The position numbers were made by a program, and so were the translations under genes. DNA of 64,000 nt from an uncultured delta proteobacterium (GTDB taxonomy: Bacteria; Myxococcota_A; Polyangia; Polyangiales; Polyangiaceae): contig CAVQUB010000005.1 of assembly GCA_963716725.1 (NCBI GenBank), positions 672,001 through 736,000 of the forward strand. The letters run 5' to 3'. The notes beneath the pieces are model-generated. The model worked only from the letters and a program-made list of their open reading frames with translations. It made no database searches and had not been told where the DNA came from. Every line of letters starts with the position of its first letter. Within the stretch, counting starts at the first letter, position 1. Of this stretch, positions 22,993 to 39,206 are shown one piece after another.

Positions 22993-23769
22993 TCAGCGCC
23001 CGCCGCGGTCGGCCGCGTCGACGATGGCACTGAACCCCGCGGCGTCGAGGGACGCGCCGCCCACCAGGGCGCCGTCGATGTTCGGTTGCCCGAGCAACTG
23101 CGCTGCGTTGTCGGCCTTCACGCTGCCGCCGTAGAGGACGCGGGTCGCTTTGGCCAACGCGCCCGACTGCTGGGCCAGGAGCGCCCGGATCGCCGCGTGC
23201 ACGGCCTCCGCGTCTTCGGGGCTGGCGACCTTGCCGGTGCCAATGGCCCACACGGGCTCGTAGGCGATGGCGCCGAAGCCCGGTTGTCGGGCCAGCACGT
23301 CGATCACGGCGCGGACCTGACGCCCGACTACCTCGAGCGTGGTGCCGGCGTCGCGCTCGGCCAGCGTCTCGCCGACGCACACCATCGGCCGCGGGCCCGT
23401 CGTCAGCGCGCGTTGGGTCTTCTTCGCGACGACCGCGTCGGTCTCGCCGCAGAGTTGACGTCGCTCACTGTGGCCGACGAGGACCCACGTCACGCCCGTC
23501 GCGAGCAGCATCCCGCTGGAGATTTCACCTGTGAACGCGCCGTCGTTGGCATCGCTCATGTTCTGCGCGCCAAGCGCGACGCGGCTCCCGGTGGCGTCGA
23601 GCGCTGCGCGAACCGCAGCGAGCGCGGTGAAGGGCGGCGCGACGAGCACGTCGACGCGATCGCGGTCCCGCACGCTCCGCGCTACGGCGGCCGCCAACTC
23701 AGCGGCCTCCGGCCCGCCGACGTTCATCTTCCAATTGCCGGCGATGAAAGGCCTTCGGTCGGGGTTCAC
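22993..23769 (-). CDS. tpiA: Triosephosphate isomerase
   Basis: [36 protein letters not shown]. Confidence 0.98.
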
Positions 23770-23853
23770 GAGTTCCTGCCTACGGCTTGGGCCGCGCGAC
23801 GGTCAAGCCCGCTTCCATGGCCGCCCTGCTTGGGATACGGTCGCCATTCTCCG

Positions 23854-25287
23854 ATGAGTACCTCCTTCCACGCGGCTGGGCCTGTCGTCCTCGCCAGCGA
23901 TCATGGGGGTTTCGAGCTGAAACAGGCGCTGCTTCGCCACCTAGCGCGGGCTGGGGTGCGCACCTTGGACGCGGGCACCCACAGCAAGGAGGCCTGCGAC
24001 TACCCCGTGTTCGCGACCGCCGCCGCGCTCGCGGTGGCGCGCGGTGAGGCGTGGCGTGGCGTGGTGATCGACGGCGCCGGAATCGGCTCGGGCATGGTCG
24101 CAAACAAGATCCCGGGCGTGCGCTCGGCGATGGCGTTCAACGAGGCCACCGCGCGGAACGCGCGTGAGCACAACAACGCCAACGTCATCACCTTGGGAGC
24201 GGGCTATCTCAGCGAAGAAGCGGCCATCAAAGTCCTTGACGTCTTTCTGGCTACCGATTGTACTGAAGACCGCCACAAGCGCCGTGTGGCGATGATCGAC
24301 GCACTCGACGCCGGGCGCAGCTTGCCCGCGTCCCCACACCTCACGAGGATCAGCGAGCCCATGGCAAGCACCGACCGCGCGGCGCTCGTTCAAGCGATCG
24401 TCGACGTCCTGACGGCGAACCCGTCGTTGCTCGCGGGCGCCGGCGACATGCCCGGCGGTGCGCCCAGCTTGTGCGAGAACGGGCGCTGCGTCGCCTGTGG
24501 GCACTGCATCTCCAAGCGAACCGACAGCGTGCGGGCCATCGTCGGCGCTGGCCGCCCCATGCGCCTCGCCAGCGCGCCGGGGTTGGGCGCGGTTCCCGAG
24601 GACATCGCCAAATACATCGACCACACCCTGCTCAAGCCCGACGCGACCTACGCCGACATCGACAAACTCTGCGACGAGGCGCGGCGGTTCGGCTTTGCCT
24701 CGGTCTGCGTCAATCCGGTGCACGTCAAGCGCTGCGCGGACAAACTCCGGGGCTCGTCCTCCCTCGTGTGCACGGTGATTGGCTTCCCGCTCGGTGCCAC
24801 GCCGCCTGAGGTCAAGGCGCTGGAGACTCGCCGCGCGATCCGCGATGGCGCTCGCGAGATCGACATGGTCGTCGCCATCGGCGCGCTCAAGTCCGGGGAC
24901 CACAAGTACGTGTACGAAGACATCCGTACCGTGGCTGAGGCAGCCCACGACGGCCGCGCCATCCTCAAGGTCATCCTCGAGACGGCACTGCTGACCGACG
25001 AAGAGAAGATCGCCGGCTGCGTCGCCGCCAAGAAAGCGCGCGCCGACTTCGTCAAGACTTCGACCGGCTTCGCCAAGGGTGGGGCGACCGTGCACGACGT
25101 CACGCTGATGGCCACGGCCGTCGATCAGAAGCTCGGCGTCAAGGCCTCCGGCGGCGTCGGTTCGGTGGACGACGCGCGCAAGATGATCGAAGCCGGTGCG
25201 ACTCGCATCGGCGCGTCCGTCGGTGTGAAGATCGTGCAAGAGTCACGTGGGCAGAAGTCCGACGAGACCGCGAAGGCTGCGTACTAG
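23854..25287 (+). CDS. deoC: RpiB-family sugar-phosphate isomerase / deoxyribose-phosphate aldolase (DeoC) fusion with internal encapsulation peptide
   Basis: N-half: [31 protein letters not shown]-half: [39 protein letters not shown]; no stop between them. Confidence 0.93.
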
Positions 25288-25313
25288 CAGCCTCGAAAGG
25301 TGAGAGCAGCCAG

Positions 25314-25949
25314 ATGGCCGACCTCCGAAGCTTCGTTTTCCTCGATTCGCTCCAACCACAGCTCGCGGCTTACCTCGGCACCATCGCCAAGGGCTTCTTG
25401 CCCGTGGCGGGCGAGGCGTCGCTGATCGTCGAGATCTCTCCCGGCATCGAGATCAACCGCTGCACCGACATCGCGGTGAAGGCGACCGACGTTCGGCCGG
25501 GCATGCAGATCGTCGAGCGCTTGTACGGCATGCTCGAGCTGCACAGCCCCTCCCAAGCCGACGTGCGGCAGGCGGGCAGCGCCATCCTCGAAGCGTTGGG
25601 GCTGAACGAAGAAGACCGCATCAAGCCCCGGGTGCTGTCCTCGCAGGTCATCAAGCACGTCGACGACCTGCAGGTGCAGCTGATCAACCGCAGCCGCCAA
25701 GGCATGATGCTGATCGCGCAGGAGTCGCTCTTCATCATGGAGGTCGAGCCCGCGGGTTACGCGGCGTTTGCCGCCAACGAAGCCGAGAAAGCCGCCGAGA
25801 TCAACGTGGTCGACGTGCGCATGACCGGCGCCTTTGGCCGCATCTATTTGGGTGGCGAGCAGCGCGACATCGACGTGGCCAGCGTGGCCGCGGCGAAGGC
25901 GATCGAGTCGCTGAAGGGTCGCGAGGCGAAATCCTCGCGGAAGGACTGA
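25314..25949 (+). CDS. BMC shell trimer, permuted double-layer type (BMC-Tdp, CcmP/CsoS1D-like)
   Basis: [46 protein letters not shown]. Confidence 0.92.
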   Translation: MADLRSFVFLDSLQPQLAAYLGTIAKGFLPVAGEASLIVEISPGIEINRCTDIAVKATDVRPGMQIVERLYGMLELHSPSQADVRQAGSAILEALGLNEEDRIKPRVLSSQVIKHVDDLQVQLINRSRQGMMLIAQESLFIMEVEPAGYAAFAANEAEKAAEINVVDVRMTGAFGRIYLGGEQRDIDVASVAAAKAIESLKGREAKSSRKD

Positions 25950-25952
25950 GCC

Positions 25953-26573
25953 GTGATCGACCTCCGAAGTTTCGTATTTTTGGACTCGCTGCAGCCGCAG
26001 CACGCCGCATTTCTCGGCACCGTCGCCAAGGGCTTCTTGCCCGTGCGCGGCCAAGCGTCGCTGCTGATCGAGATCGCGCCGGGCATCGAGATCAACCGCC
26101 TCACCGACATCGCGGTCAAGACCACCAGCGTGCAGCCGGGCATGCAGATCGTCGAGCGCCTCTACGGCCTGCTCGAGTTCCACCACGATCAGCAGGCCGA
26201 GGTGCGCCGCGCGGGCGAGGCCATCCTCAAAGAGATTGGCGCCGAGGAGTCCTCGCGCATCAAGCCGGAGATCTTGTCGTCGACCGTCATCCGCCACCTC
26301 GACGACCGGCAGACGCAGCTCATCAACCGCGTGCGTCATGGCCATATGATCGTCGCCGGTCAGACGCTCTACACCCTGGAGGTGCAGCCGGCGGCCAACG
26401 CCGCCCTGGCCGCCAACGAAGCCGAGAAAGCGGCGAACATCAAGGTGCTCGAGATCGTGAGCTTCGGCTCCCTGGGTCGCGTCTACTTGGCGGGTGACGA
26501 CCGCGACATCGACGTGGCTGTGCCCGCGGCGGAGCGGGCGCTCGCGGGGCTGACGGGCCGCGCCGGCAAATGA
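25953..26573 (+). CDS. Second BMC-Tdp shell trimer
   Basis: Paralog of the preceding gene: [38 protein letters not shown]. Confidence 0.92.
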
Positions 26574-26620
26574 ACGAAGGCTTTGGGAAGAACAACGCGT
26601 CAGTACAACGGAGAACGTAA

Positions 26621-26938
<318 letters not shown>

Positions 26939-27001
26939 GAGACCTCTCGAGCCCCCGTGTCTCGCGCCGCGGCGCGGCGCGGGGGAAGTCAGGATCGGAC
27001 G

Positions 27002-27316
27002 ATGCTCCTAGCAAAGGTGGTCGGGACTCTGGTCGCGACGCGCAAGGATCCGAAGCTCGACGGGCTCAAATTCATGCTGCTCCGGCAGGTGAACCCAGAG
27101 AGCCTGGTCGAAGGCGGTTACGTGGTGGCCAACGACGCCGTCGGCTGCGGCGTTGGCGAATACGTGCTCTACGCGTCGGGATCGTCCGCCCGTCAGACCG
27201 AGGTCACCAAGGATCGGCCCTGCGACGCGGTCGTCATGGCCATCGTCGATACCTGGGAGATCGGCGGCGAGACGCGCTTCGAGAAGCACGGACAGGAACA
27301 CGGCTATGCGGACTAG
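27002..27316 (+). CDS. BMC vertex pentamer (BMC-P, EutN/CcmL family)
   Basis: [38 protein letters not shown]. Confidence 0.95.
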
Positions 27317-27340
27317 CGCTCCGGATCGGCAAGCGTCGCG

Positions 27341-28783
27341 ATGAACCCGGAGGAAATCAGGCGCATCGCCGAGTCCATCGCCGACCGGCTCGCCGGGGGC
27401 GGTGGTGTTTCGGCCAACGCGCCCGCGCCGCTCGCGACCGCTGCGCCCTCCCCTTCTGCTGACGGCATCTTTGCCAACGTCGACGACGCCATCAAGGCCG
27501 CCCGGGCAGGGTTCATCGCGCTGTCGGCCCTCGGCCTCGAACAGCGCAAGCTGATCATCGAGTCCATGCGCGTCGAGATGCGCCGCCAGGCCGAGCCCCT
27601 GGCGCGCATGGCCAATGAAGAGACGGGCCTCGGGCGCTTCGAGGACAAGGTCCAGAAGAACCTGCTGGTCACCAACAAGACCCCCGGAACCGAAGATCTC
27701 AGCCCCATTGCCCACAGCGGCGACGACGGCTTCGCGCTGATCGAGCCGGCGCCCTTCGGTGTCATCGGAGCCATCACTCCGGTCACGAACCCGCCGTCGA
27801 CGATCATCTGCAACTCCATCGCCATGGTGGCCGCGGGCAATGCCGTCACTTTCAACCCGGCTCCCGGCGCGAAGCGGGTCTCGGCGGAGACGATCCGCTG
27901 CTTGAACCGCGCCATCGTTGCGGCGGGTGGGCCGGCAAACGTGCTGACCGCGGTGGCTGAGCCCACCATCGAATCGGCGACGGCGCTGATGAAGCACCCG
28001 CTGACGCGGCTGATCGTCGTGACCGGCGGGCCCGGCGTGGTGCAGGCCGCGATGAACTCGGGCAAGCGCGCGATCTGCGGTGGCCCGGGCAATCCGCCGG
28101 CGGTGGTCGATCCGACCGCTGACATCGACAAGGCCGGGCGCGACATCGTGCTGGGCCACTCCTTCGACAACAACGTGATTTGCGTCGACGAGAAGGAGGT
28201 CATCTGCGTGGACTCCGTCGCCGACTCGCTGAAGGCGGCGATGAAGCGCAACGGCGCGGTGGAGCTCAAGGCCACCGACATCCCGCGCCTCGAAAAGGTG
28301 ATCTTCGAGAAGAACGCCGGCCCTCGGGGCCACGCCGTCGTGAACCGAAAGTTCGTCGGCAAGAACGCCTCGCTCATCTTGCAGGAGCTCGGCATCCCCG
28401 GCGGCCCCGAGGTGCGCTGCATCCTCATCGACGTGCCCAACGACCATCCTCTGGTCTGGACCGAGCAGATGATGCCGGTGCTGCCCCTCACGCGCGTCAG
28501 GACCGTGGACGAGGCCATCGACCTCGCGGTGGAGGCCGAGGGCGGCTGCTTTCACACGGCGACCATGCACTCCCATGACATCGCGGCGCTCTCCCGCATG
28601 GCGCGCAGGTGCAACTGCAGCATCTTCGTCAAGAACGGTCGCGCCATCGCCGGGCTTGGCGCGGACGGCGAGGGCTACACCTCGTTCACCATCGCGTCGC
28701 CGACCGGGGAGGGGCTCACCACGGCGCGCTCGTTCTCGCGCTGGCGACGCTGCACGATGGTCGATCACTTCCGCATCGTCTGA
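27341..28783 (+). CDS. CoA-acylating aldehyde dehydrogenase (EutE/PduP family) with N-terminal encapsulation peptide
   Basis: MNPEEIRRIAESIADRL amphipathic helix and linker; ETGLG, PVTNP, TGGPGVV, GPGNPP, FDNNVIC, EQMMP, TIASPTGEG. Confidence 0.95.
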   Translation: MNPEEIRRIAESIADRLAGGGGVSANAPAPLATAAPSPSADGIFANVDDAIKAARAGFIALSALGLEQRKLIIESMRVEMRRQAEPLARMANEETGLGRFEDKVQKNLLVTNKTPGTEDLSPIAHSGDDGFALIEPAPFGVIGAITPVTNPPSTIICNSIAMVAAGNAVTFNPAPGAKRVSAETIRCLNRAIVAAGGPANVLTAVAEPTIESATALMKHPLTRLIVVTGGPGVVQAAMNSGKRAICGGPGNPPAVVDPTADIDKAGRDIVLGHSFDNNVICVDEKEVICVDSVADSLKAAMKRNGAVELKATDIPRLEKVIFEKNAGPRGHAVVNRKFVGKNASLILQELGIPGGPEVRCILIDVPNDHPLVWTEQMMPVLPLTRVRTVDEAIDLAVEAEGGCFHTATMHSHDIAALSRMARRCNCSIFVKNGRAIAGLGADGEGYTSFTIASPTGEGLTTARSFSRWRRCTMVDHFRIV

Positions 28784-28793
28784 GCCCCGGCCG

Positions 28794-29405
28794 ATGCTGT
28801 CGGAAATTCAGGCTCTCGGACCCGCGCTCGCGATGGTCGAGCTGTGTGACATTCCGTCAGGGCTGGTGGCGCTCGACGCCCTCGCCAAAGAGGCTCCGGT
28901 CGTGGTGGTCGGGGCGGGCACCATCCACCACGGCCATTTCTTGATCGTGTTCGCGGGTTCGGTCGCGGAGGTCGAGATGTCGTATGCGCGGGCGATCGAG
29001 CGCACCGAGGCCGCGATCGTCGACCGCGTGCTCTTGCCCGACGCCGAGCCTCGGCTCTTGCCCGCGCTCTCTCGCGGCGAGCGTCGCCCGCCGCTGGTCG
29101 GAGACGCGCTGGGCATGCTCGAGGCGCGTTCGTCTCCGACTCTGGTCGGCGCCGTCGACGCCGCGCTCAAAGGCACCGACGTCGAACTCGTCGAGTTGCG
29201 CCTCGCGGAGGGCCTGGGAGGCAAGGCCCTGGCGTCGCTCTGGGGCTACCAACACGATGTCGACGCGGCCGTCGAGCTCGCGGCAAAACGGCTGGAACGG
29301 GGCCGCTTCGAGGGCTCGTCCACCACCGTCATCGCCAACGCGCATCCAGAGGTGACGCGCGTGCTCGGCGGGGGTACGCGATTCTTCAAGGAGCAATTCG
29401 GATGA
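28794..29405 (+). CDS. BMC tandem-domain single-layer trimer (BMC-Ts)
   Basis: Two BMC domains: ALAMVE...DALAK and ALGMLE...DAALK, GLGGK, IANAH. Confidence 0.88.
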   Translation: MLSEIQALGPALAMVELCDIPSGLVALDALAKEAPVVVVGAGTIHHGHFLIVFAGSVAEVEMSYARAIERTEAAIVDRVLLPDAEPRLLPALSRGERRPPLVGDALGMLEARSSPTLVGAVDAALKGTDVELVELRLAEGLGGKALASLWGYQHDVDAAVELAAKRLERGRFEGSSTTVIANAHPEVTRVLGGGTRFFKEQFG

Positions 29406-29716
29406 AGCTCGGTCGCGTCATCGGCACCCTGGTCGCCAGCGTGAAGCCCGAGGCCATGAAGGGTCTCAAGCTGCTGATCGTGCGTCCGCTCACCTCGACG
29501 CTCGAACCCGGCGGAGAGGCCTTCGTCGCGACCGACGCATCGGCTCAAGCTTCGACCGGCGATCTCGTGACTTGGGAGGCATCGCGGGAGGCCGCACTGC
29601 TCCACGATCCCTGGTTCGTGCCGGTGGATCACGCGGTCGTAGGCATTGTGGACCAACACCACTACGACGAGACGGGTACCGCCGATCCGCGCACGCGGCG
29701 GGGGACAGGCTCGTGA
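29402..29716 (+). CDS. BMC vertex pentamer (BMC-P)
   Basis: MKLGRVIGTLVASVK, SREAA, PVDHAVVGIVD; ATGA overlap with previous gene. Confidence 0.92.
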   Translation: MKLGRVIGTLVASVKPEAMKGLKLLIVRPLTSTLEPGGEAFVATDASAQASTGDLVTWEASREAALLHDPWFVPVDHAVVGIVDQHHYDETGTADPRTRRGTGS

Positions 29717-29994
29717 TCCTGGGTCGCGTCACGGGGACCGTCGTCTCCACGGTTCAGCACGCATTCTACTCGGGAAAGAAGCAGCTCATCGTTCGTGCCT
29801 GCACGCCCGACGGCGCCTTCGATGGTGAGTCCTACGTCGTCGCCATCGATCTGGTCGGCGCCGGAGTAGGCGAGATGGTGATCGTGCAAGACGAGGGCAA
29901 CAGTGCGCGGCAGTTGCTCGGCCTCGAGGGCGCTCCGGTTCGATCGGTGGTCGTGGGCATCGTCGACCAGGTGACCGATTCGTCAGAACGCTGA
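29713..29994 (+). CDS. BMC vertex pentamer (BMC-P)
   Basis: MILGRVTGTVVST, DLVGAGVGE, EGNSARQ, VVGIVD; GTGA overlap. Confidence 0.92.
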   Translation: MILGRVTGTVVSTVQHAFYSGKKQLIVRACTPDGAFDGESYVVAIDLVGAGVGEMVIVQDEGNSARQLLGLEGAPVRSVVVGIVDQVTDSSER

Positions 29995-30008
29995 GGCGCA
30001 GGCCCTGG

Positions 30009-30368
30009 TCACATCCAGACGGCCCAGGCCCGGTCCAGTGGATCCTGCTGCGGCTCGAGCTCGAGCCTGGATGACGAGACCGAGTCGGACAGCCGCAGCG
30101 TCGGCGCGTCTGGGCGGCGCCACCCCTCTTCGTCCACCCGAGTCACTCGTTCGACTTCCTCGTCGAGAGTGCCGGACAAGAGCTTGCCCAGAGCGAGCAG
30201 CGCCGCCGCGATGGCCCAGCGCCACTTCTCTGGCGCGCCGCGCCCGAAAGCCGAGCGCGTGAGGGACATGCCCACCCGCGCGACCTGCAACCTGCCCCGC
30301 GACGACGCGCAGTGCCGGAGCACGAAGCCCGCCCAATACTCTTCGAATGACCGATGTTCGGTGCTCAT
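30009..30368 (-). CDS. Hypothetical protein, weak DUF962/Mpo1-like N-terminus
   Basis: MSTEHRSFEEYWAGFVLRH resembles the FEEFWxxYLxEH start of DUF962 proteins; GAGG RBS. Confidence 0.4.
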   Translation of the reverse strand: MSTEHRSFEEYWAGFVLRHCASSRGRLQVARVGMSLTRSAFGRGAPEKWRWAIAAALLALGKLLSGTLDEEVERVTRVDEEGWRRPDAPTLRLSDSVSSSRLELEPQQDPLDRAWAVWM

Positions 30369-30517
30369 GGTGACCTCGGGCGCCTTCGCCCTATCCACCG
30401 GATACCTAGCCCGGCGCGACCGGGCCAAGTGTTGGGCGAACCCGAGTGGGCGGCGGCTCAGCGGGGGCGCAGCCGCTCAGAGAGAAACCTCCGGCCCCGC
30501 GATCCGGCTCCCAGTGT

Positions 30518-30830
30518 CTAGATCGGATAGGGCGACGCGCCGATCGCGTAGGTGTGCGTGGCGAGCGCGAGCGCGTAGATCACGACGCCGAGCAGCAGGC
30601 GCCAAGCCCCGATCTCCGAAACGCTCAGGCGATTGCGCCCCTCCAAGATCGCGGCGAAGGGCACGATGGACGTGGCGCTTGCGAACTTCTCCCAGTCTTC
30701 GCCGTGGGTTTCGCGTCGACGCCGCTCGATATGGAGCGTGCCGAGGATGGCGAGCGCGGCGGCCCCTGCGGCGAAGGACGCGGTCCCGCGAAGCAAGCCA
30801 CCGAACACGCAGCCATGCGTATCACGACGG
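30518..30830 (-). pseudogene. C-terminal fragment of an NnrU-family membrane protein
   Basis: TSIVPFAAILEGRNRL...EIG.WR...H....G.SP; N-terminal half not recognisable. Confidence 0.6.
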
Positions 30831-30897
30831 GGGGCGACACGGCGACGACCAGCGCCGCATTTGCGCTCCCGCACGCCTTGACGCATCATGCCGGGTC

Positions 30898-31341
30898 ATG
30901 ACGGACGGGGACAGCAAACGCTTGGTATTGGCTCGGCGCGCTCGCTTCGTGGCGATGGCGCTCGCGAGCGCGGGCATCGCCTCGGCGACCACTACCGCCT
31001 GCGGCGGCGATTCCGATGGCGGCGGCAGCGGAGGAAGTGCGGCCGCCTCGGGCGGAGGCGCAGGCGGTACGGGCGGCGCGAACACCGGCGGCGCGAGCGG
31101 ATCGGGCGGCGCGAGCGGATCGGGCGGCGCGAGCGGATCGGGCGGCGCGAACACCGGCGGCGCGAGCGGATCGGGCGGCGCGAGCGGATCGGGCGGCGCC
31201 AATACCGGCGGCGTTGCCGGCGATGCGGGCTTCGATGCCGACGCGGGGCCCCAGCCCTGCCTCGCGCCACCACCCGCAGATGCGAGCACTGATGGACCGC
31301 AGGTGTGTCTGTCGCTCCCGCCCCCCGACAGCGGGAGCTGA
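30898..31341 (+). CDS. Small Gly-rich lipoprotein with twin PQxCL motifs
   Basis: LARRARFVAMALA...TTAC leader, GGASGS repeats, PQPCLAPPP and PQVCLSLPPP. Confidence 0.7.
   Translation: MTDGDSKRLVLARRARFVAMALASAGIASATTTACGGDSDGGGSGGSAAASGGGAGGTGGANTGGASGSGGASGSGGASGSGGANTGGASGSGGASGSGGANTGGVAGDAGFDADAGPQPCLAPPPADASTDGPQVCLSLPPPDSGS
31072..31212. repeat. Coding tandem repeat (18-bp GGASGS units interspersed with GGANT)
   Basis: GGCGGCGCGAGCGGATCG x5. Confidence 0.85.
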
Positions 31342-31438
31342 CGAGCTACGCCTCACGGATCCCGGGCTATCGTGCGGGACAACGAAGGCAACCGCGTCGC
31401 GCTGCACGCGAGCTGAAGCGGCCGCGACCGGCAGACAA

Positions 31439-32512
31439 TCAGTTCGTCGCCGCGCCCTTGAAGGTCGCGATGACGCCCGCGGCCCCGCGGCTCGGCGCTG
31501 CATGAGTCCAGGTGTGAGAGGCGGTGCCGGTGCTGTTCAGCACCTTGGAGACCATCGAGTGCGCTGGTGGGCCGTTCGCGTTGTCTTGGTGGATCTGATG
31601 CGGAGACCAGCCCGCGCTGGGCTGGATGTTCGCGTAGGTCTGATCGTGTCGAACTGACAGCACCGCGACCGCGAGCTCGTTGGCCTGAGTCGTGACTTGG
31701 AAGGTGCTGGCATTCGTCGTCGTTCCCGAGGCGGCCGCGGTGTAGCCGCTGGCGTCCAGGCTGGGCGGTGCGCTCAAGCCCGAGACCTCGATCACGCCCC
31801 ATGCGATGGCCTGAACGTTGGAGGTGCCCACGGGATCCACCTTGATGGCGAAGGGGCTGCTCGGAACAGTGATGGTTTGGGCGATGAAGATGTAGCCGCG
31901 CGCTGCTTGGTGACTCGACTTGATGGGAGAGCCCTGAACGACCTGCGCGTAGCTGTTCCCGTGGTTGTCGGTGACCGAGCCGGTGGGCACCAGGCAATCG
32001 CCGTTCTGGGTCGCCCCGGTGCCAGCGTCGTTCATGATGACTCCGTGGTCGCTGACGCAGGTGATGCCGACGATGATCGAGTTGCCTGCGTTTGGCGCGG
32101 TGGCAAACGTGATCGTGGAAGTGAGCTCGCCCGGCATGCTGAGCTTCAGAGGCGAAGCCTGAACGACGACGATGGGCGGAGGGCCCGCGTCCGAGGCCGC
32201 GTCGGTGCTGCCATCGACGGTTGCGTCGCCAGCCGAGCCGTCTGCCCCCGCGCTGCCGCCGGCTCCGCCGGCTCCGCCGGTGGCGCCTCCGGTGCCGGCA
32301 ACTCCGCCGCTGCCTGCTGCGCTGCCGCCGGTGCCTCCCACGCTACCTCCCGATCCGCCGACGGTGCCCCCCGATCCGCCGACGGTGCCGCCGGTTCCCC
32401 CCGTGGCGCCGCCGGTGCCCCCGGAGTTCTTTGCGTCGTCCGAGAACTCCTCGCCACCGCAGGCGTGAACGATCAAGACCAGTGCCGAAAGCAATGCGAC
32501 CCGCGCGCCCAT
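31439..32512 (-). CDS. Lipoprotein with Gly-rich linker and beta-rich C-terminal domain
   Basis: VHAC lipobox-like signal, GGTGG repeats, Thr/Ala-rich domain. Confidence 0.75.
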   Translation of the reverse strand: MGARVALLSALVLIVHACGGEEFSDDAKNSGGTGGATGGTGGTVGGSGGTVGGSGGSVGGTGGSAAGSGGVAGTGGATGGAGGAGGSAGADGSAGDATVDGSTDAASDAGPPPIVVVQASPLKLSMPGELTSTITFATAPNAGNSIIVGITCVSDHGVIMNDAGTGATQNGDCLVPTGSVTDNHGNSYAQVVQGSPIKSSHQAARGYIFIAQTITVPSSPFAIKVDPVGTSNVQAIAWGVIEVSGLSAPPSLDASGYTAAASGTTTNASTFQVTTQANELAVAVLSVRHDQTYANIQPSAGWSPHQIHQDNANGPPAHSMVSKVLNSTGTASHTWTHAAPSRGAAGVIATFKGAATN

Positions 32513-32582
32513 TCGACAAGTGTGACACAGCGACGGGGTGGCTGATAGCCGCCGACAAGTCATCGATCGATGCGCAGTCGGT

Positions 32583-33380
32583 TCAGCTCGTGCCCACGGC
32601 CTCCGGGGTTGGGCCCCGTCCGGTGATGCGCGCCACGCTGAACCCCGCGGACCTCCCCAAGCCTTCTGGGGACGGGCGGCCGCAACCCGAGCAGCCCCGA
32701 CAGTGGACGGGCAGCCCGCCCGCTACCGGCGGGCCCCCGTAGCGGGCCAGCCCCATGCCGCGGAGCGCCTTCGCTTCGTCCGCGGGCAGTTCGCGGACCT
32801 GCCCGAGCTGTCGCGCGGCCAGGAGCACCTTCGCCGTGTGCTCCATGGTCTCGAGCTTGCAGAACGCATCGAGCAGACTCTTGCCCACGCAGACGGCCCC
32901 GTGGCGATCCATCATCACGGCGTCGTGGGTGCGGATCGCGTCGCCCACTTGGTGAGCGAGCTCCTGCGTGCCCGTTCGTTCGTAGCCAAGGGTGGGGATG
33001 CTGCCCATGGTGAGCACGACCTCGGGCAGCACGCACTGCGCGAGGGAGACTCCGGCGACGGTGAACGCGACGCAGGTCGGGGGATGCGCGTGCACGACGG
33101 CTTGGGCATCCGGGCGGGTCTCGTAGCAGGCAGCGTGCATCGCCATTTCGCTCGTGGGCTCGCCGCGGCCGCGTACTTTCCGACCGCGCAGGTCGATGAC
33201 GACCAAGTCGTCGTCGGTCAGGAGCCCTTTGTGGCAGCCCGCGCGCGTGCAGAGCAGGAGCCCGTCGCTCAGGCGGACCGAGAGATTTCCGTCCAGCCCC
33301 ACGAGCAGCTGGCGCTCGTAGCAGAGGCGCGCGAAGCGCACGATCTCGCGCCGCAGCGCCGTCTCTGGAAGCGGAAGCAT
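32583..33380 (-). CDS. Class II aldolase/adducin family protein (FucA-like), probably BMC-associated
   Basis: DGNLSVR, PTSEMAMH, HAHP, HG, ETMEH; C-terminal extension with CRGCSGC. Confidence 0.92.
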   Translation of the reverse strand: MLPLPETALRREIVRFARLCYERQLLVGLDGNLSVRLSDGLLLCTRAGCHKGLLTDDDLVVIDLRGRKVRGRGEPTSEMAMHAACYETRPDAQAVVHAHPPTCVAFTVAGVSLAQCVLPEVVLTMGSIPTLGYERTGTQELAHQVGDAIRTHDAVMMDRHGAVCVGKSLLDAFCKLETMEHTAKVLLAARQLGQVRELPADEAKALRGMGLARYGGPPVAGGLPVHCRGCSGCGRPSPEGLGRSAGFSVARITGRGPTPEAVGTS

Positions 33381-34839: not shown

Positions 34840-37800
34840 TCACTCGCCCGGACTCTCGGCGGGAGCCAAGGCCGACGCGGAGAGCGGCGTCGGCGCGCGC
34901 CTGCGCGACAGCAGCGCGTACGTGCCCGGCACCACGAACAGGGTCAGCAGCGTGGACAGCGTGAGGCCGCCGACCACCGCGACGCCCAGGCTCTGGCGGC
35001 TGCCCGATGCGCTGCCGAGCGACAGGGCGATGGGCAAGATGCCCAAGACGGTGGTGAGCGTGGTCATCACGATGGGGCGGAAGCGCGCGACCGCGGCCTC
35101 CAGGACTGCGTCTTTCGGCAGCAGGCCTTCGGCTTTCTGGTGGTTGGCAAACTCGACGATCAAGATGCCGTTCTTGGTCACGATGCCGACCAGCATGATG
35201 ATGCCGATCTGGCTGAAGATGTTCAGGGTCTGACCGGTGAGCCACAGGCCCAACAGGGCGCCGAGCAGCGACATGGGCACAGTGAACAAGATGATGAGCG
35301 GATCGATGAAGCTCTCGAACTGCGCCGCCAGCACCAGGTAGATGAGCAAGATGGCGATACCGAAGGCGAAGTACAGGCTGGTCGCGCTTTCGGAGAAGTC
35401 CCGGGCCTCACCCGCCAGCGCGGTGCGGTAGCGCTGATCCAGCGTGGTCGCGGCCACCGCGTCCATGGCCTTGATGCCGTCGGCGAGGGCGTAGCCCGGG
35501 GCGATGCCCGCCGAGAAGGTCGCCGAGACGTAGCGATCGTAGCGATAGATGGCGGCGGGTGCGGTGCCTTCGTCGATGCTCACCAGGTTGTCGAGCGGGA
35601 CCATCTGCCCGGAACGCCCGCGCACATGCAGCTTGCGGACCGCTTCCGGGGCGCTGCGGTCCGCCGCTTCCACCTCGCCGATCACCTGGTACTGCCGCCC
35701 GTTCATCACGAAGTAGCCGTAGCGGCGCCCGCCGTAGGAAAGCTCGAGCGAGCGGGCGATGTCGGCCACGCTGATGCCGAGCTCGGTGGCCTTGGCGCGG
35801 TCGATGCGGATCACGCCCTCGGGACGGTTGAACTTCAGATCCGAGTCGACGAAGCGCAAGACAGGGCTCTTCGAGGCCTGCTCGAACACCTTCGGGAGGA
35901 CCTCGGCCAAGGCCTCCAGGTCGGGAGCCTGAATCACGTACTGAAGCGGCAAACCCGAGAAGCGCGCGCCGATGGTGGGCGGCTGGGCGGGGAAGGTGCG
36001 GAGCTCGGTGAAGCCGTTGAGCTTCTGGGACAACGACTGGAAGATCTGCTCTTGCGAGCGCTGCCGCTGGTTCGGTTCCTTGAGGTAGAGGTTCTGCACG
36101 CCGGTATTCACCGGACCGCCCCAGAGCCCGGTGATCGAGTACGTTCGCGACAGCTCCGGAACGCTTTCGGTCAGCAGCACCGCCAGCTTGTCGAGCTGCG
36201 CGGCGGTGTACTGGTAGGTGGCGCCTTCTGGAGCGCGCACCCCCACCCGAATGTTGGAGCGGTCTTCGAGCGGCGCCAGCTCGCTCTTGAGCTTGCCGCC
36301 GACGAAGACGGCGAGGGCCACGACGCCCACGACCAGCGGCGCGGACACGATCCGAACGCGCAGAAAGGCGCCGAGCGCGCGGCGGTACAGGCCATTGAGC
36401 CCCGCGAAGAAGGGCTCCGTCACGCGGTAAAACCAGCTGGGTTTCGCCTGGCGCTTGAGCAAAAAGCGGCACATCACCGGCGACAGCGTCAGCGCCACGA
36501 AAGCGGAGATGAGCACCGAACCGGCCACCACGATGGCGAACTCGCGGAACAGACGCCCGGTGAGCCCCTCCAGGAACACGATGGGCAGGAACACCGCGGC
36601 CAGGGTGATGGTGGTGGAGATCACCGCAAAGTAGATCTCCCGGGAGCCCGCCATGGCTGCGTCGAAGGGCGCCATGCCCTCCTCGATCTTCGCGTAGATG
36701 TTCTCGAGCACGACGATGGCGTCGTCCACCACCAGGCCAATGGCCAAGACCAGCGCCACCAGCGTCAGGATGTTGATGGTGAACCCCGCCACGTACATCA
36801 CGAAGAAGGTGGAGATGATGCTGACCGGGATGGCGATCAACGGGACGAGCGTCGAGCGGAAGCTACGCAAGAAGACGAAGATGACCGCACCGACCAACAT
36901 GAACGCGGTGCCGAGGGCCTCCTCCACCTCGCGGATGGAGCGTCGCACGTAGGTCGTGAAGTCGTAGCCCACCTCGACTCTGAAGCCCGGCGGCACGGAC
37001 TTCTGGATCTCGGCGAAGCGGCGGTAGAACTCGTCGGCAATCTCGATGGCGTTGGTGTTCGGCTGCGGCACGACGGCGACGCCGACCATGGGCACGCCGT
37101 TCTGCTTGACGCCGGTGCGCAGGTTCTCGGCGCCGAGCTCGGCGTGGCCGATGTCGCGAAACTCGATCTGCCGGCCGCCCTCTTGGCGGATCACCATGCG
37201 ATTGACCTCCTCGGCCGTGGTCAGGCGCCCCACCGCCCGCAGGCCGATCTCCACCGCGCTGCCCTCGACGCGTCCCGCGGGCAGGTCCACGTTCTCGCGC
37301 AGCAGCGCGTCCTGCACGTCTTGCGGCGTGACGCGGTGAGCCGCCATGCGCTCGGTATCCATGCCAAGGCGCATGGCCCAGCGTTTCTCGCCGAAGATGC
37401 GCACCGTGCTCACGCCGGGGATGGTCTGCATCCGCTCCTTGATCAGCGTGTCCGCGATGTGGTTCACCTCCAGGATGCTCTTGTCGTCGCTCTGGACCGT
37501 CATGAACACGATCGGCGATGCGTCGGCGTCCGCCTTCTCGACAATGGGCGGATCGACGTCGGCGGGCAGGCGGCGCACCGCCCCGGCGACCTTGTCGCGG
37601 ATGTCGTTGGCGGCGGCGTCTACGTCGGTGCCAATGGTGAACTCGACCCGGATCACGCTCTGACTCTCCCGGGAGGTGCTCGCGATGTTGCGCACGCCGG
37701 CCACTCCGTTGACCGCCTGCTCGAGCGGCTCCGTGATCTGAGAATCCATGACCTCCGGGTTGGCGCCCGGGTAGTTGGTGGTGATGGTGACGATGGGCGG

Positions 37801-37923
37801 GTCCACCGCGGGGTACTCGCGCACGCCCAGGAAGCGGAAGCCCACGACGCCCAGCACGACCAAGATCAGCGACGCCACCAGCGCGAGCACCGGGCGGCGC
37901 AGGCTGATTTCTGCGACGTTCAC
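34840..37923 (-). CDS. RND efflux transporter permease subunit (AcrB family)
   Basis: 1027 aa; RRPV, YPGA, IGLVVDDAIVVLEN, QFES, KNGILIVEFAN, RFRPIVMT. Confidence 0.97.
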   Translation of the reverse strand: MNVAEISLRRPVLALVASLILVVLGVVGFRFLGVREYPAVDPPIVTITTNYPGANPEVMDSQITEPLEQAVNGVAGVRNIASTSRESQSVIRVEFTIGTDVDAAANDIRDKVAGAVRRLPADVDPPIVEKADADASPIVFMTVQSDDKSILEVNHIADTLIKERMQTIPGVSTVRIFGEKRWAMRLGMDTERMAAHRVTPQDVQDALLRENVDLPAGRVEGSAVEIGLRAVGRLTTAEEVNRMVIRQEGGRQIEFRDIGHAELGAENLRTGVKQNGVPMVGVAVVPQPNTNAIEIADEFYRRFAEIQKSVPPGFRVEVGYDFTTYVRRSIREVEEALGTAFMLVGAVIFVFLRSFRSTLVPLIAIPVSIISTFFVMYVAGFTINILTLVALVLAIGLVVDDAIVVLENIYAKIEEGMAPFDAAMAGSREIYFAVISTTITLAAVFLPIVFLEGLTGRLFREFAIVVAGSVLISAFVALTLSPVMCRFLLKRQAKPSWFYRVTEPFFAGLNGLYRRALGAFLRVRIVSAPLVVGVVALAVFVGGKLKSELAPLEDRSNIRVGVRAPEGATYQYTAAQLDKLAVLLTESVPELSRTYSITGLWGGPVNTGVQNLYLKEPNQRQRSQEQIFQSLSQKLNGFTELRTFPAQPPTIGARFSGLPLQYVIQAPDLEALAEVLPKVFEQASKSPVLRFVDSDLKFNRPEGVIRIDRAKATELGISVADIARSLELSYGGRRYGYFVMNGRQYQVIGEVEAADRSAPEAVRKLHVRGRSGQMVPLDNLVSIDEGTAPAAIYRYDRYVSATFSAGIAPGYALADGIKAMDAVAATTLDQRYRTALAGEARDFSESATSLYFAFGIAILLIYLVLAAQFESFIDPLIILFTVPMSLLGALLGLWLTGQTLNIFSQIGIIMLVGIVTKNGILIVEFANHQKAEGLLPKDAVLEAAVARFRPIVMTTLTTVLGILPIALSLGSASGSRQSLGVAVVGGLTLSTLLTLFVVPGTYALLSRRRAPTPLSASALAPAESPGE

Positions 37924-37930
37924 CCTGCGC

Positions 37931-39017
37931 TCACTTCTCGAGGGTCACGGGAGCGCCCTCGCGCAGCCGGAGCAGGTTGTTCACCAGCACCGTGTCCCCG
38001 GCGGAGAGGCCGGAGACGATCTCGACGTCGTCGGCCGTGCGCTGGCCGATCTCCACGGGGCGCAGGCTGGCTTTGCCGTCGGTGAGCACCCAGATCCCGT
38101 GGCCCTTCACGCTGGGCACGAGCGCTTGGGCCGGGACGGTCAGAGATCGGTTTGTCCGCGCCGATGGGGACCTCGACGTTGGCGAAGGCTCCGCTCGCGA
38201 GCTCGCCCTCGGCGTTTTCGGTCAGGCCGCGCACGCTGACGCTGCGGGTCGCGCGGTCGATCTCTGGCTCGATGGCGATGACCTGCCCCTTGAAGCGCTC
38301 CGGGCGCCCCGTCACTTTGAAGAAGAACTCGTGTCCCACGCGCACGTCCGCCACGTAGCGCTCGGGCAGTGCGAAGTCGACCTTCAGCTTCGAGGTGTCC
38401 GAGAGGGTGGTCAGCACCGTTTCGGGTGTGACCCAGGCGCCGGCGCTCACCCGTCGAAGGCCGACCTTGCCAGCAAAGGGAGCGCGGATGCGCGTCTTCT
38501 GCAGGGTGACACCGCGCATGCCCATTTCCGCCCGAAGCTCATCGAGCTCGCTCTTGACTCGGTCATACTCGGCCTGGCTGAGCAGGTTCTGTGAGAGCAG
38601 TTGCTTCGAGCGTGCCTCCTGGGAAGCCAGGAGCTTCTTCTTGACCTCGAGGCGGCGGAGGTCAGCGCCGAGATCCGAGGAGTCCAGGCTGAACAGCAGC
38701 GCGCCCTTCTTGACCAGGGCGCCCTCCTCGACGTGGACTCTGGTCAAGCGTCGCGAGATCTCGCTCACGACTTTGATGGATTCGTTCGCTGCCAGCGTGC
38801 CGACCGTGGGCACAGTGACGCTGACGGTCTTCGGGCTGACCACGTGCCCTCGGGCCAAGAGTGGGGCCCCCGCCGCTCCGCCGCGCGCGCTGGCCGAGCC
38901 TGCCGTGGGCTCGGGCTTGGTCGCCGGCGCCTGGTTGCACCCGTACGCGGCGAACACCGCGCAGGCGAGTACGTTACGAAAACCTGCTGAAGTCACCACG
39001 GCGGCCGGCTCTCTCAT
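37931..39017 (-). CDS. RND periplasmic adaptor (MFP) subunit, frameshift near 38145
   Basis: IRAPFAGKVG, LKVDFALPE, ID..TRS; continues in another frame as LTVPAQALVP...EIVSGLSAGDTV. Confidence 0.88.
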
Positions 39018-39206
39018 AGCACCCGGCGCCGCCGAACGGCACCTGCCGGATGCTCGGCACCCCTGCGTTTGCGCCAATTTCAGTGCCTTGCGCGCCCCCG
39101 CCCAGGGTGGCAGCGCCGCGCAAGCGCGACGAACGCGGGCAAGATGGGAATTGTCGCTGACGAGGTGGGAGCACGGAGCTTTCGAGTGCTGCTATCTTGA
39201 GCAGCA

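Follow-up and report, generated by a model that had tools for sequence, protein, structure and literature searches.

A locus most probably encoding an SPU3-type sugar-phosphate-utilising metabolosome in an uncultured Polyangiaceae-like myxobacterium

Background

Which kind of bacterial microcompartment (BMC) is encoded by a compact operon of an uncultured delta proteobacterium, and what is processed inside it? The question is raised by a stretch of 64,000 nucleotides (positions 672,001 to 736,000 of contig CAVQUB010000005.1, assembly GCA_963716725.1), called the window in the following, in which a gene for a fused ribose-5-phosphate isomerase (RPI, of the RpiB kind) and deoxyribose-5-phosphate aldolase (DERA, DeoC) stands together with genes for an aldehyde dehydrogenase (AldDH) and for shell proteins of the hexamer (BMC-H, or H), trimer (BMC-T, or T, here as Tdp and Ts) and pentamer (BMC-P, or P) classes. 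A preliminary description, made from the sequence alone, had taken the locus as a Haliangium-type organelle carrying sugar-phosphate enzymes. Our answer, to which we give a probability of about 0.88, is that it is a sugar-phosphate-utilising (SPU) metabolosome of subtype SPU3 in a Polyangiaceae-like myxobacterium, with the core mechanism proposed for such organelles. The locus is one more member of a catalogued type, and its chemistry is already published.

The SPU type was named in Axen 2014 (PMC4207490), which also mentions the fusion and triosephosphate isomerase (TPI). Dwyer 2024 (PMC11585597) sets out seven SPU subtypes and takes DERA as their signature enzyme, in line with the preliminary description, which had used DeoC and RpiB as SPU markers. 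The same work reports the RPI-DERA fusion in 20 SPU3 loci as an SPU3 trait and a Cys-to-Asp replacement in all SPU RPIs, proposes the same pathway as the preliminary description, including TPI and a class II aldolase, and finds in vitro that the SPU6 DERA is active on deoxyribose-5-phosphate while the SPU6 RPI is nearly inactive; its SPU3 list (Supplemental Dataset S1) includes Minicystis rosea, of the Myxococcales. For the Haliangium ochraceum (HO) type, Sutter 2021 (PMC8217296) calls the function "enigmatic", describes type II HO loci with two BMC-P and the aldolase inside the main locus, and notes that some HO genomes hold elsewhere a DeoC with an extension like an encapsulation peptide, suggesting an SPU-like role in myxobacteria. 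A 2025 preprint (PMC12747264) also treats SPU loci of Myxococcota that contain TPI and aldolase.

Assignment to SPU3

The locus groups with a published SPU3 member. It is syntenic with a locus of M. rosea (L026), the two AldDH stand together in both trees described below, and L026 holds the only BMC-H match of M. rosea, so it is very probably the locus listed there as SPU3. The general SPU features are all present, namely a DERA with intact catalytic residues (Asp337, Lys401, Lys430) in the locus, an N-terminal DERA extension together with a BMC-P triplet, an acylating AldDH with a predicted encapsulation helix, and an RPI with Asp73 at the Cys66-to-Asp site and His106 kept. The joint occurrence of the fusion, CcmP-like Tdp and BMC-Ts is that of subtype SPU3.

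Relatives of the AldDH point the same way. Among the best 80 of 551 in the genome collection, Polyangiaceae are in the lead, 56 loci show the complete order RPI-DERA-(Tdp)n-H-P-AldDH-Ts-P-P and 67 have RPI or DERA, many of the remaining ones ending at contig ends. Two Tdp genes were called by script in 14 of these 80 loci (13 without the overlapping-hit artefact L062), all of them in records of Myxococcota, Acidobacteria or unclassified deltaproteobacteria. In most related loci, which come from many phyla, the operon begins with the fusion. In a FastTree phylogeny of 121 AldDH rows, from which 4 identical rows had been dropped, the window and M. rosea fall in a 33-row clade with support 100, and in a quick IQ-TREE analysis (LG+G4) of 40 hand-picked rows they fall in a 9-row clade at 99.

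Several points weigh against this assignment and its mechanism. The SPU enzymes assayed so far in Dwyer 2024 (PMC11585597) are those of SPU6, not SPU3. According to the same source PduS is frequent in all SPU subtypes except SPU6, and Pfam did not reveal it among the ORFs of the operon. The RpiB half, judged from its invariant His and Arg residues and Cys136, may have an activity of its own. Canonical deoB, which bears on the supply of deoxyribose-5-phosphate, was not found in the genome, nor did it exceed the cut-off in any of 61 genomes (0/61).

The RpiB-DERA fusion

The preliminary description had started the operon with rpiB-deoC; both domains are there, as a single fused frame of 477 aa and not as two genes. 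The DERA half passes TIGR00126 (257 bits, cut-off 117). An AlphaFold2 (AF2) model built on an alignment of 56 sequences (predicted confidence, pLDDT, 85) resolves both domains and leaves the linker at low confidence (pLDDT ~45-65); its DERA fold lies at a root-mean-square deviation of ~1.1-1.2 Å from DERA structures, and every Foldseek match listed for the model is a DERA. The model also predicts a helix at aa 175-188, between the two halves, which is likely an encapsulation tag, although a hydrophobic moment of 0.33 does not make it stand out. For the extension, no usable match came from the ESM Atlas. Of 56 fusions, 40 have a Met no more than 16 aa ahead of the helix, where ~29% would be expected, and an in-frame ATG with an upstream purine-rich stretch is found ahead of the helix at 24335-24363, so that a stand-alone tagged DERA may additionally be made.

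In the RpiB half, Asp replaces the catalytic Cys, as it does in 79 of 83 RPI matches, the two with Cys being unlinked RpiBs. All 56 fusions compared have His106, Arg140, His141, Arg144 and Cys136, which suggests that a ligand site has been kept; the invariant Cys136 adjoins the conserved Arg-His-x-x-Arg. Most likely this half is a non-catalytic packing or ligand-binding partner. A housekeeping isomerase role is unneeded, as rpiA exists elsewhere in the genome.

Clusters of Cys occur both on the DERA extension (C-x4-C-x2-C-x2-C) and on the tail of the class II aldolase (CxxCxxC), and they are conserved across many SPU and HO-like genomes. At least three Cys within the 65 aa before DERA were counted in 46 of 76 SPU loci and in 27 of 27 satellite DERAs, most of which had been picked with a profile that itself contains Cys. 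The clusters may form a metal site. The main text of Dwyer 2024 (PMC11585597) mentions no zinc, iron or Fe-S and has four unrelated mentions of cysteine, though its supplements may differ; a literature search for the motif returned nothing on it, and supplements of SPU papers may hold it.

As a side observation on the sequences compared, frameshifts occur in the RPI, linker, DERA and AldDH of one locus (L118, G034:C17) and in the DERA of another (L196, G295:C12), as sequencing errors or decay.

Proposed chemistry and substrate supply

The product of the operon is most likely an organelle with a protein shell, in which deoxyribose phosphate derived from degraded DNA is cleaved and the resulting acetaldehyde is trapped. 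Deoxyribose-5-phosphate from deoxynucleoside breakdown would enter the shell and be split by DERA to glyceraldehyde-3-phosphate (GAP) along with acetaldehyde, which the encapsulated acylating AldDH, going by its family, would convert with CoA and NAD+ to acetyl-CoA. The locus holds no phosphotransacylase (PTAC) or alcohol dehydrogenase, and the cofactors and acetyl-CoA are therefore supposed to cross the shell, presumably via the gated trimers formed by the two CcmP-like Tdp. Probably in the cytosol, the extra TPI would balance GAP and dihydroxyacetone phosphate (DHAP), and the aldolase would serve as an accessory satellite enzyme.

Conversion of deoxyribose-5-phosphate to GAP and acetyl-CoA was also the proposal of the preliminary description, and it is probably right, with the DERA triad intact and an acylating AldDH with Cys281 and an N-terminal helix. 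This AldDH passes NCBIfam PRK15398 (626 bits, cut-off 403), and its N-terminus is predicted as a strong amphipathic helix (hydrophobic moment 0.70, the 95th percentile being 0.54). The same chemistry has been put forward in Axen 2014 (PMC4207490) and Sutter 2021 (PMC8217296), with the SPU6 DERA assayed in 2024 (PMC11585597). On the supply side, the genome has a pyrimidine-nucleoside phosphorylase, and three genes of the phosphoglucomutase/phosphomannomutase (PGM/PMM) family could stand in for deoB.

The extra tpiA and the genus

The tpiA gene divergent from the operon is not a housekeeping gene placed there by chance, since a second, housekeeping TPI lies in a pgk-tpi-secG cluster on contig C20 and the copy numbers in the genus agree. 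The BMC block with the fusion is present in four of seven genomes of the genus; each of these four has two TPI copies, the BMC-less genome G005 has one, and no match was found in G004 (84% complete) or G006 (73% complete). The extra tpiA tracks the organelle within the genus.

The conserved DNA block of the genus extends over ~23005-29977 and ends at the third BMC-P. The genes that flank it in G001 and G002 lie ~180 bp apart at G000:C15:170778-170960, and G003 has the block in a different place; within the genus, these 7 kb have either changed position or been gained and lost. The different flanks in G001, G002 and G003 might indicate a mobile cassette, a reading weakened by the general scatter of flanking genes among these genomes.

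The class II aldolase and a possible second input

The preliminary description had noted a class II aldolase 2.6 kb downstream. The gene is present, 2588 bp from the last BMC-P, a proximity seen in this genome alone. A connection with the organelle is probable, encapsulation of the enzyme less certain. It occurs in all four BMC-bearing genomes of the genus and in none of the three BMC-less ones (two of which are 73-84% complete), and lies on other contigs in G001-G003, so that, with the conserved block ending earlier, a fixed part of the locus is ruled out. Eight further SPU3-like genomes gave homologs at 43-79% identity in five, ~30% in two, and none in one. A CxxCxxC motif is shared by the M. 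rosea and genus copies, a terminal helix is found in the M. rosea copy and absent from the genus copy, and the aldolase tree, poorly supported at its base, does not place the genus copy.

The same SPU3 organelle might have a second input, in which the aldolase splits a ketose-1-phosphate, e.g. 5-deoxyribulose-1-phosphate from 5'-deoxyadenosine salvage or a 6-deoxyhexulose-1-phosphate, to DHAP and an aldehyde for the AldDH, and TPI converts DHAP to GAP. This would add to the explanation given above rather than replace it, and we regard it as unlikely, though the best of the alternatives. In its favour, the enzyme belongs to the PF00596/FucA family and not to the fructose-bisphosphate type, which we take to be PF01116. 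For this reason the role in forming fructose bisphosphate proposed in Dwyer 2024 (PMC11585597) is doubtful. A related aldolase converts 5-deoxyribulose-1-phosphate to DHAP and acetaldehyde (PMC6079011), products which, by analogy, would fit the AldDH as well as the extra TPI. The distribution within the genus, the occurrence in M. rosea and elsewhere of satellite homologs bearing a terminal helix, and the presence of mtnA in the genome are also in agreement. On the other side, the enzyme stays below every NCBIfam equivalog cut-off (136 of 250 bits at best), the genus copy has no terminal helix, the aldolase tree does not fix its place, the aldolase was not found in the BMC-bearing G012, G034 and G445, and the incompleteness of two BMC-less genomes limits the distribution argument.

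Besides these copies, a region of ~5 kb near a contig end (L113, G000:C8:417538-422508) is 96-98% identical to G003, other compared regions being at 67-82%, and carries a second, 5'-truncated aldolase copy; it represents bin contamination or a recent transfer.

Haliangium-type and other readings

That a consolidated HO-type locus has captured sugar-phosphate enzymes, as the preliminary description had it, is very improbable. Some likeness is real: the shell count is that of HO, the best natural PDB matches of BMC-H (HO-5815) and of the first BMC-P (a chain of 5v74) come from the HO shell, the second Tdp slightly prefers 5v76, which we take to be an HO trimer, and the core order Tdp-H-P-AldDH-Ts(-P-P-aldolase) is common to HO-like loci and the window. 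However, HO chains are the expected best matches, since no SPU-labelled chain stands in the PDB listings, and the inventory of 1 H, 3 T and 3 P with AldDH and class II aldolase, which had been read as that of HO, agrees in count but is a superficial and undiagnostic likeness, because SPU3 relatives have the same shell set.

What decides is the placement of the AldDH and Tdp. Of 401 genomes surveyed in the phylum, 165 gave an AldDH match at E<=1e-60, and of 40 AldDH loci fetched from these, 39 carry shell genes; the closest are SPU-like, and most, at ~50-56% identity, have the order Tdp-H-P-AldDH-Ts with no RPI or DERA, some with P-P-aldolase in addition. In the FastTree phylogeny 25 of 26 loci without DERA belong to a separate 28-row clade (support 98), and in the IQ-TREE one the HO-like group comprises 17 rows at 96. 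Forcing the window into this group, which was picked after the first tree had been seen, costs 165 log-likelihood units and is rejected by the approximately unbiased (AU) test (p-AU 8.4e-5). Membership of the group was set by the order of genes, with a single Tdp (L157) as its anchor; H. ochraceum's own AldDH was not among the rows of the trees. The L157 Tdp reaches 305 bits with HO-5816 and 234 with CcmP, the opposite of the preference of the first Tdp of the window (265 to CcmP, 241 to HO-5816). In addition, the fusion heads the operon here, while the HO type has no DERA or RPI in its main locus. We therefore reject the HO assignment, and the suggestion that this arrangement gives the HO shell a new link to a substrate finds no support; the idea of HO as an SPU-like system is already in Sutter 2021 (PMC8217296). 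Outside both main groups, on a long branch, is the AldDH of a rearranged SPU-like locus (L207, G262:C323) with the order P, AldDH, Ts, P, RPI, P, H, DERA.

Least probable of all is an organelle of the Eut, Pdu or Planctomycetes-Verrucomicrobia (PVM) type with the fusion as a bystander, for which one can cite the PVM-like pairing of class II aldolase and AldDH (Axen 2014, PMC4207490) and an EutL-like tandem-BMC satellite that, from weak tandem hits, seems present in some related genomes, and against which stand the position of the fusion at the operon head in related loci of many phyla and, in this genome, the failure to find EutB, an EUT satellite (searched genome-wide) or any BMC-domain or BMC-P match beyond the locus (whole genome, 84% complete).

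Tagged DERA in genomes with HO-like loci

A profile of the DERA extension (71 positions, 21 rows, to which several of the tested genomes contributed) matches 89 of the 401 phylum genomes, namely 88 of 165 AldDH-positive and 1 of 236 AldDH-negative ones; without 18 genomes hand-listed as SPU, it is found in 74 of 147 AldDH-positive ones. Related genomes are not independent in these counts. Twenty of the 89 matches were fetched, and all 20 stand in frame before a DERA domain, 19 with the three catalytic residues in frame and one frameshifted; no shell genes were seen within the 3.5-5 kb fetched around them. Some AldDH-bearing families have no match (f41, AldDH in 12/12 genomes and extension in 0/12; f36, 8/9 and 0/9), the genome of the HO-5816-anchored locus L157 being among those without one, and the profile misses Cys-free tags such as that of G052. 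At L206 (G196:C60:1711-6023) a DERA with the extension and a Tdp-H-P-AldDH-Ts operon stand in convergent orientation, the DERA ending ~400 bp from the operon. The AldDH of this operon falls within the HO-like clade, and the pair thus ties the HO type physically to the signature enzyme of SPU.

Co-occurrence and L206 together support the suggestion of Sutter 2021 (PMC8217296) for part of the HO type only. More speculatively, and with somewhat less likelihood than we allow the second input, SPU3 and HO may form one acetaldehyde-trapping nucleoside-sugar lineage, much of HO using the same chemistry with a DERA that is tagged by helix and Cys and encoded in trans, with the motif of 3-4 Cys common to DERA extension and aldolase tail as a metal-binding (Zn or Fe-S) assembly or redox module and the aldolase feeding a second aldehyde stream, e.g. 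from 5'-deoxyadenosine salvage. The locus itself is of small importance, since SPU3 is already listed in the family, and its compact operon with one BMC-H offers a convenient construct, the SPU enzymes tested so far being those of SPU6. The HO shell is a main structural and engineering model with a native job called enigmatic, and the counts and L206 make the one-sentence suggestion of Sutter 2021 (PMC8217296) directly testable.

Layout of the locus

Genes of the window were called by Pfam on 31 ORFs (Table 1), and all genes listed by the preliminary description are present in the order it gave. Gaps of -4 to 63 bp within the gene series are compatible with one operon.

Table 1. Coordinates of the metabolosome genes and of parts of the fusion protein in the window
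Feature	Position	Strand	Basis and remarks
tpiA, extra triosephosphate isomerase	22993..23769	-	Pfam TIM; divergent from operon; catalytic motifs intact
RpiB-DERA fusion, 477 aa	23854..25287	+	Pfam LacAB_rpiB and DeoC; single frame from ATG 23854
RpiB-like domain of fusion	~aa 11-152		Asp73 in place of catalytic Cys; His106, Arg140 invariant
DERA domain of fusion	~aa 251-462		Asp337, Lys401, Lys430
DERA N-terminal extension	24361..24603	+	internal Met; putative encapsulation helix aa 175-188; Cys motif
Cys motif C-x4-C-x2-C-x2-C of DERA extension	24472-24507	+	
BMC-Tdp 1, CcmP-like gated trimer	25314..25949	+	Pfam BMC; best PDB match CcmP 265 bits, HO-5816 241 bits
BMC-Tdp 2	25953..26573	+	PDB 5v76 250 bits, CcmP 244 bits; 64% identity to Tdp 1
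BMC-H hexamer protein	26621..26938	+	Pfam; best natural PDB match HO-5815; 86% to M. rosea
BMC-P 1	27002..27316	+	Pfam EutN/CcmL
CoA-acylating AldDH (EutE/PduP-like)	27341..28783	+	Pfam Aldedh; N-terminal amphipathic helix (predicted); Cys281
BMC-Ts, two-domain, PduT-like fold	28794..29405	+	Pfam
BMC-P 2	29402..29716	+	Pfam EutN/CcmL
BMC-P 3, end of genus-conserved block	29713..29994	+	Pfam EutN/CcmL
FucA-family class II aldolase	32583..33380	-	Pfam Aldolase_II, PF00596; C-terminal CxxCxxC; outside operon

Four ORFs between BMC-P 3 and the aldolase (30009-32563) matched no NCBIfam family; two of them are Gly-rich and lipoprotein-like, and the first has a homolog at 36-38% identity likewise 3' of BMC-P 3 in G001 and G002. 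An AcrB-family efflux pump with a membrane-fusion protein follows at 34840-39077, and in G001 and G002, too, the pump is found at a distance of 20-25 kb from the BMC block. A promoter and terminator scan of the locus stayed at chance level, and in one wastewater RNA study 0-7% of words matched, the contigs there being short and mostly from relatives, which does not amount to evidence of expression.

Comparison with known systems

The closest known system is the SPU3 locus of M. rosea DSM 24000 (A7982_), which has the same order of divergent tpiA, RpiB-DERA, Tdp, Tdp, H, P, AldDH, Ts, P, P, with 62-93% identity per domain, 55% in the linker, and a fusion of 478 aa against 477 aa here. It differs in its aldolase, ~3.2 Mb away instead of 2.6 kb, at 43% identity and with a terminal helix, and in a distant tandem-BMC satellite, of which none was found in this genome. 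The SPU6 locus of Chloroflexi GWB2_54_36 (Dwyer 2024) shares the extended DERA, the Cys-to-Asp RPI, the AldDH, three BMC-P and a Tdp; there, however, RPI and DERA are separate genes accompanied by one Tdp and a GntR regulator, whereas here they are fused and two CcmP-like Tdp are present. With the HO BMC (PMC8217296) the locus has in common the 1 H/3 T/3 P set, the AldDH, the class II aldolase and the core order of HO-like loci, while the HO type has loci without RPI or DERA, an AldDH of a separate clade and another Tdp, any tagged DERA being encoded elsewhere in the genome. Finally, the SPU loci of Hodarchaeales and deep Myxococcota, as the 2025 preprint (PMC12747264) describes them, share the core of DERA and AldDH and, in Myxococcota, TPI and class II aldolase, but have two H and a PTAC, in place of which the locus of the window has one H, two Tdp and no PTAC.

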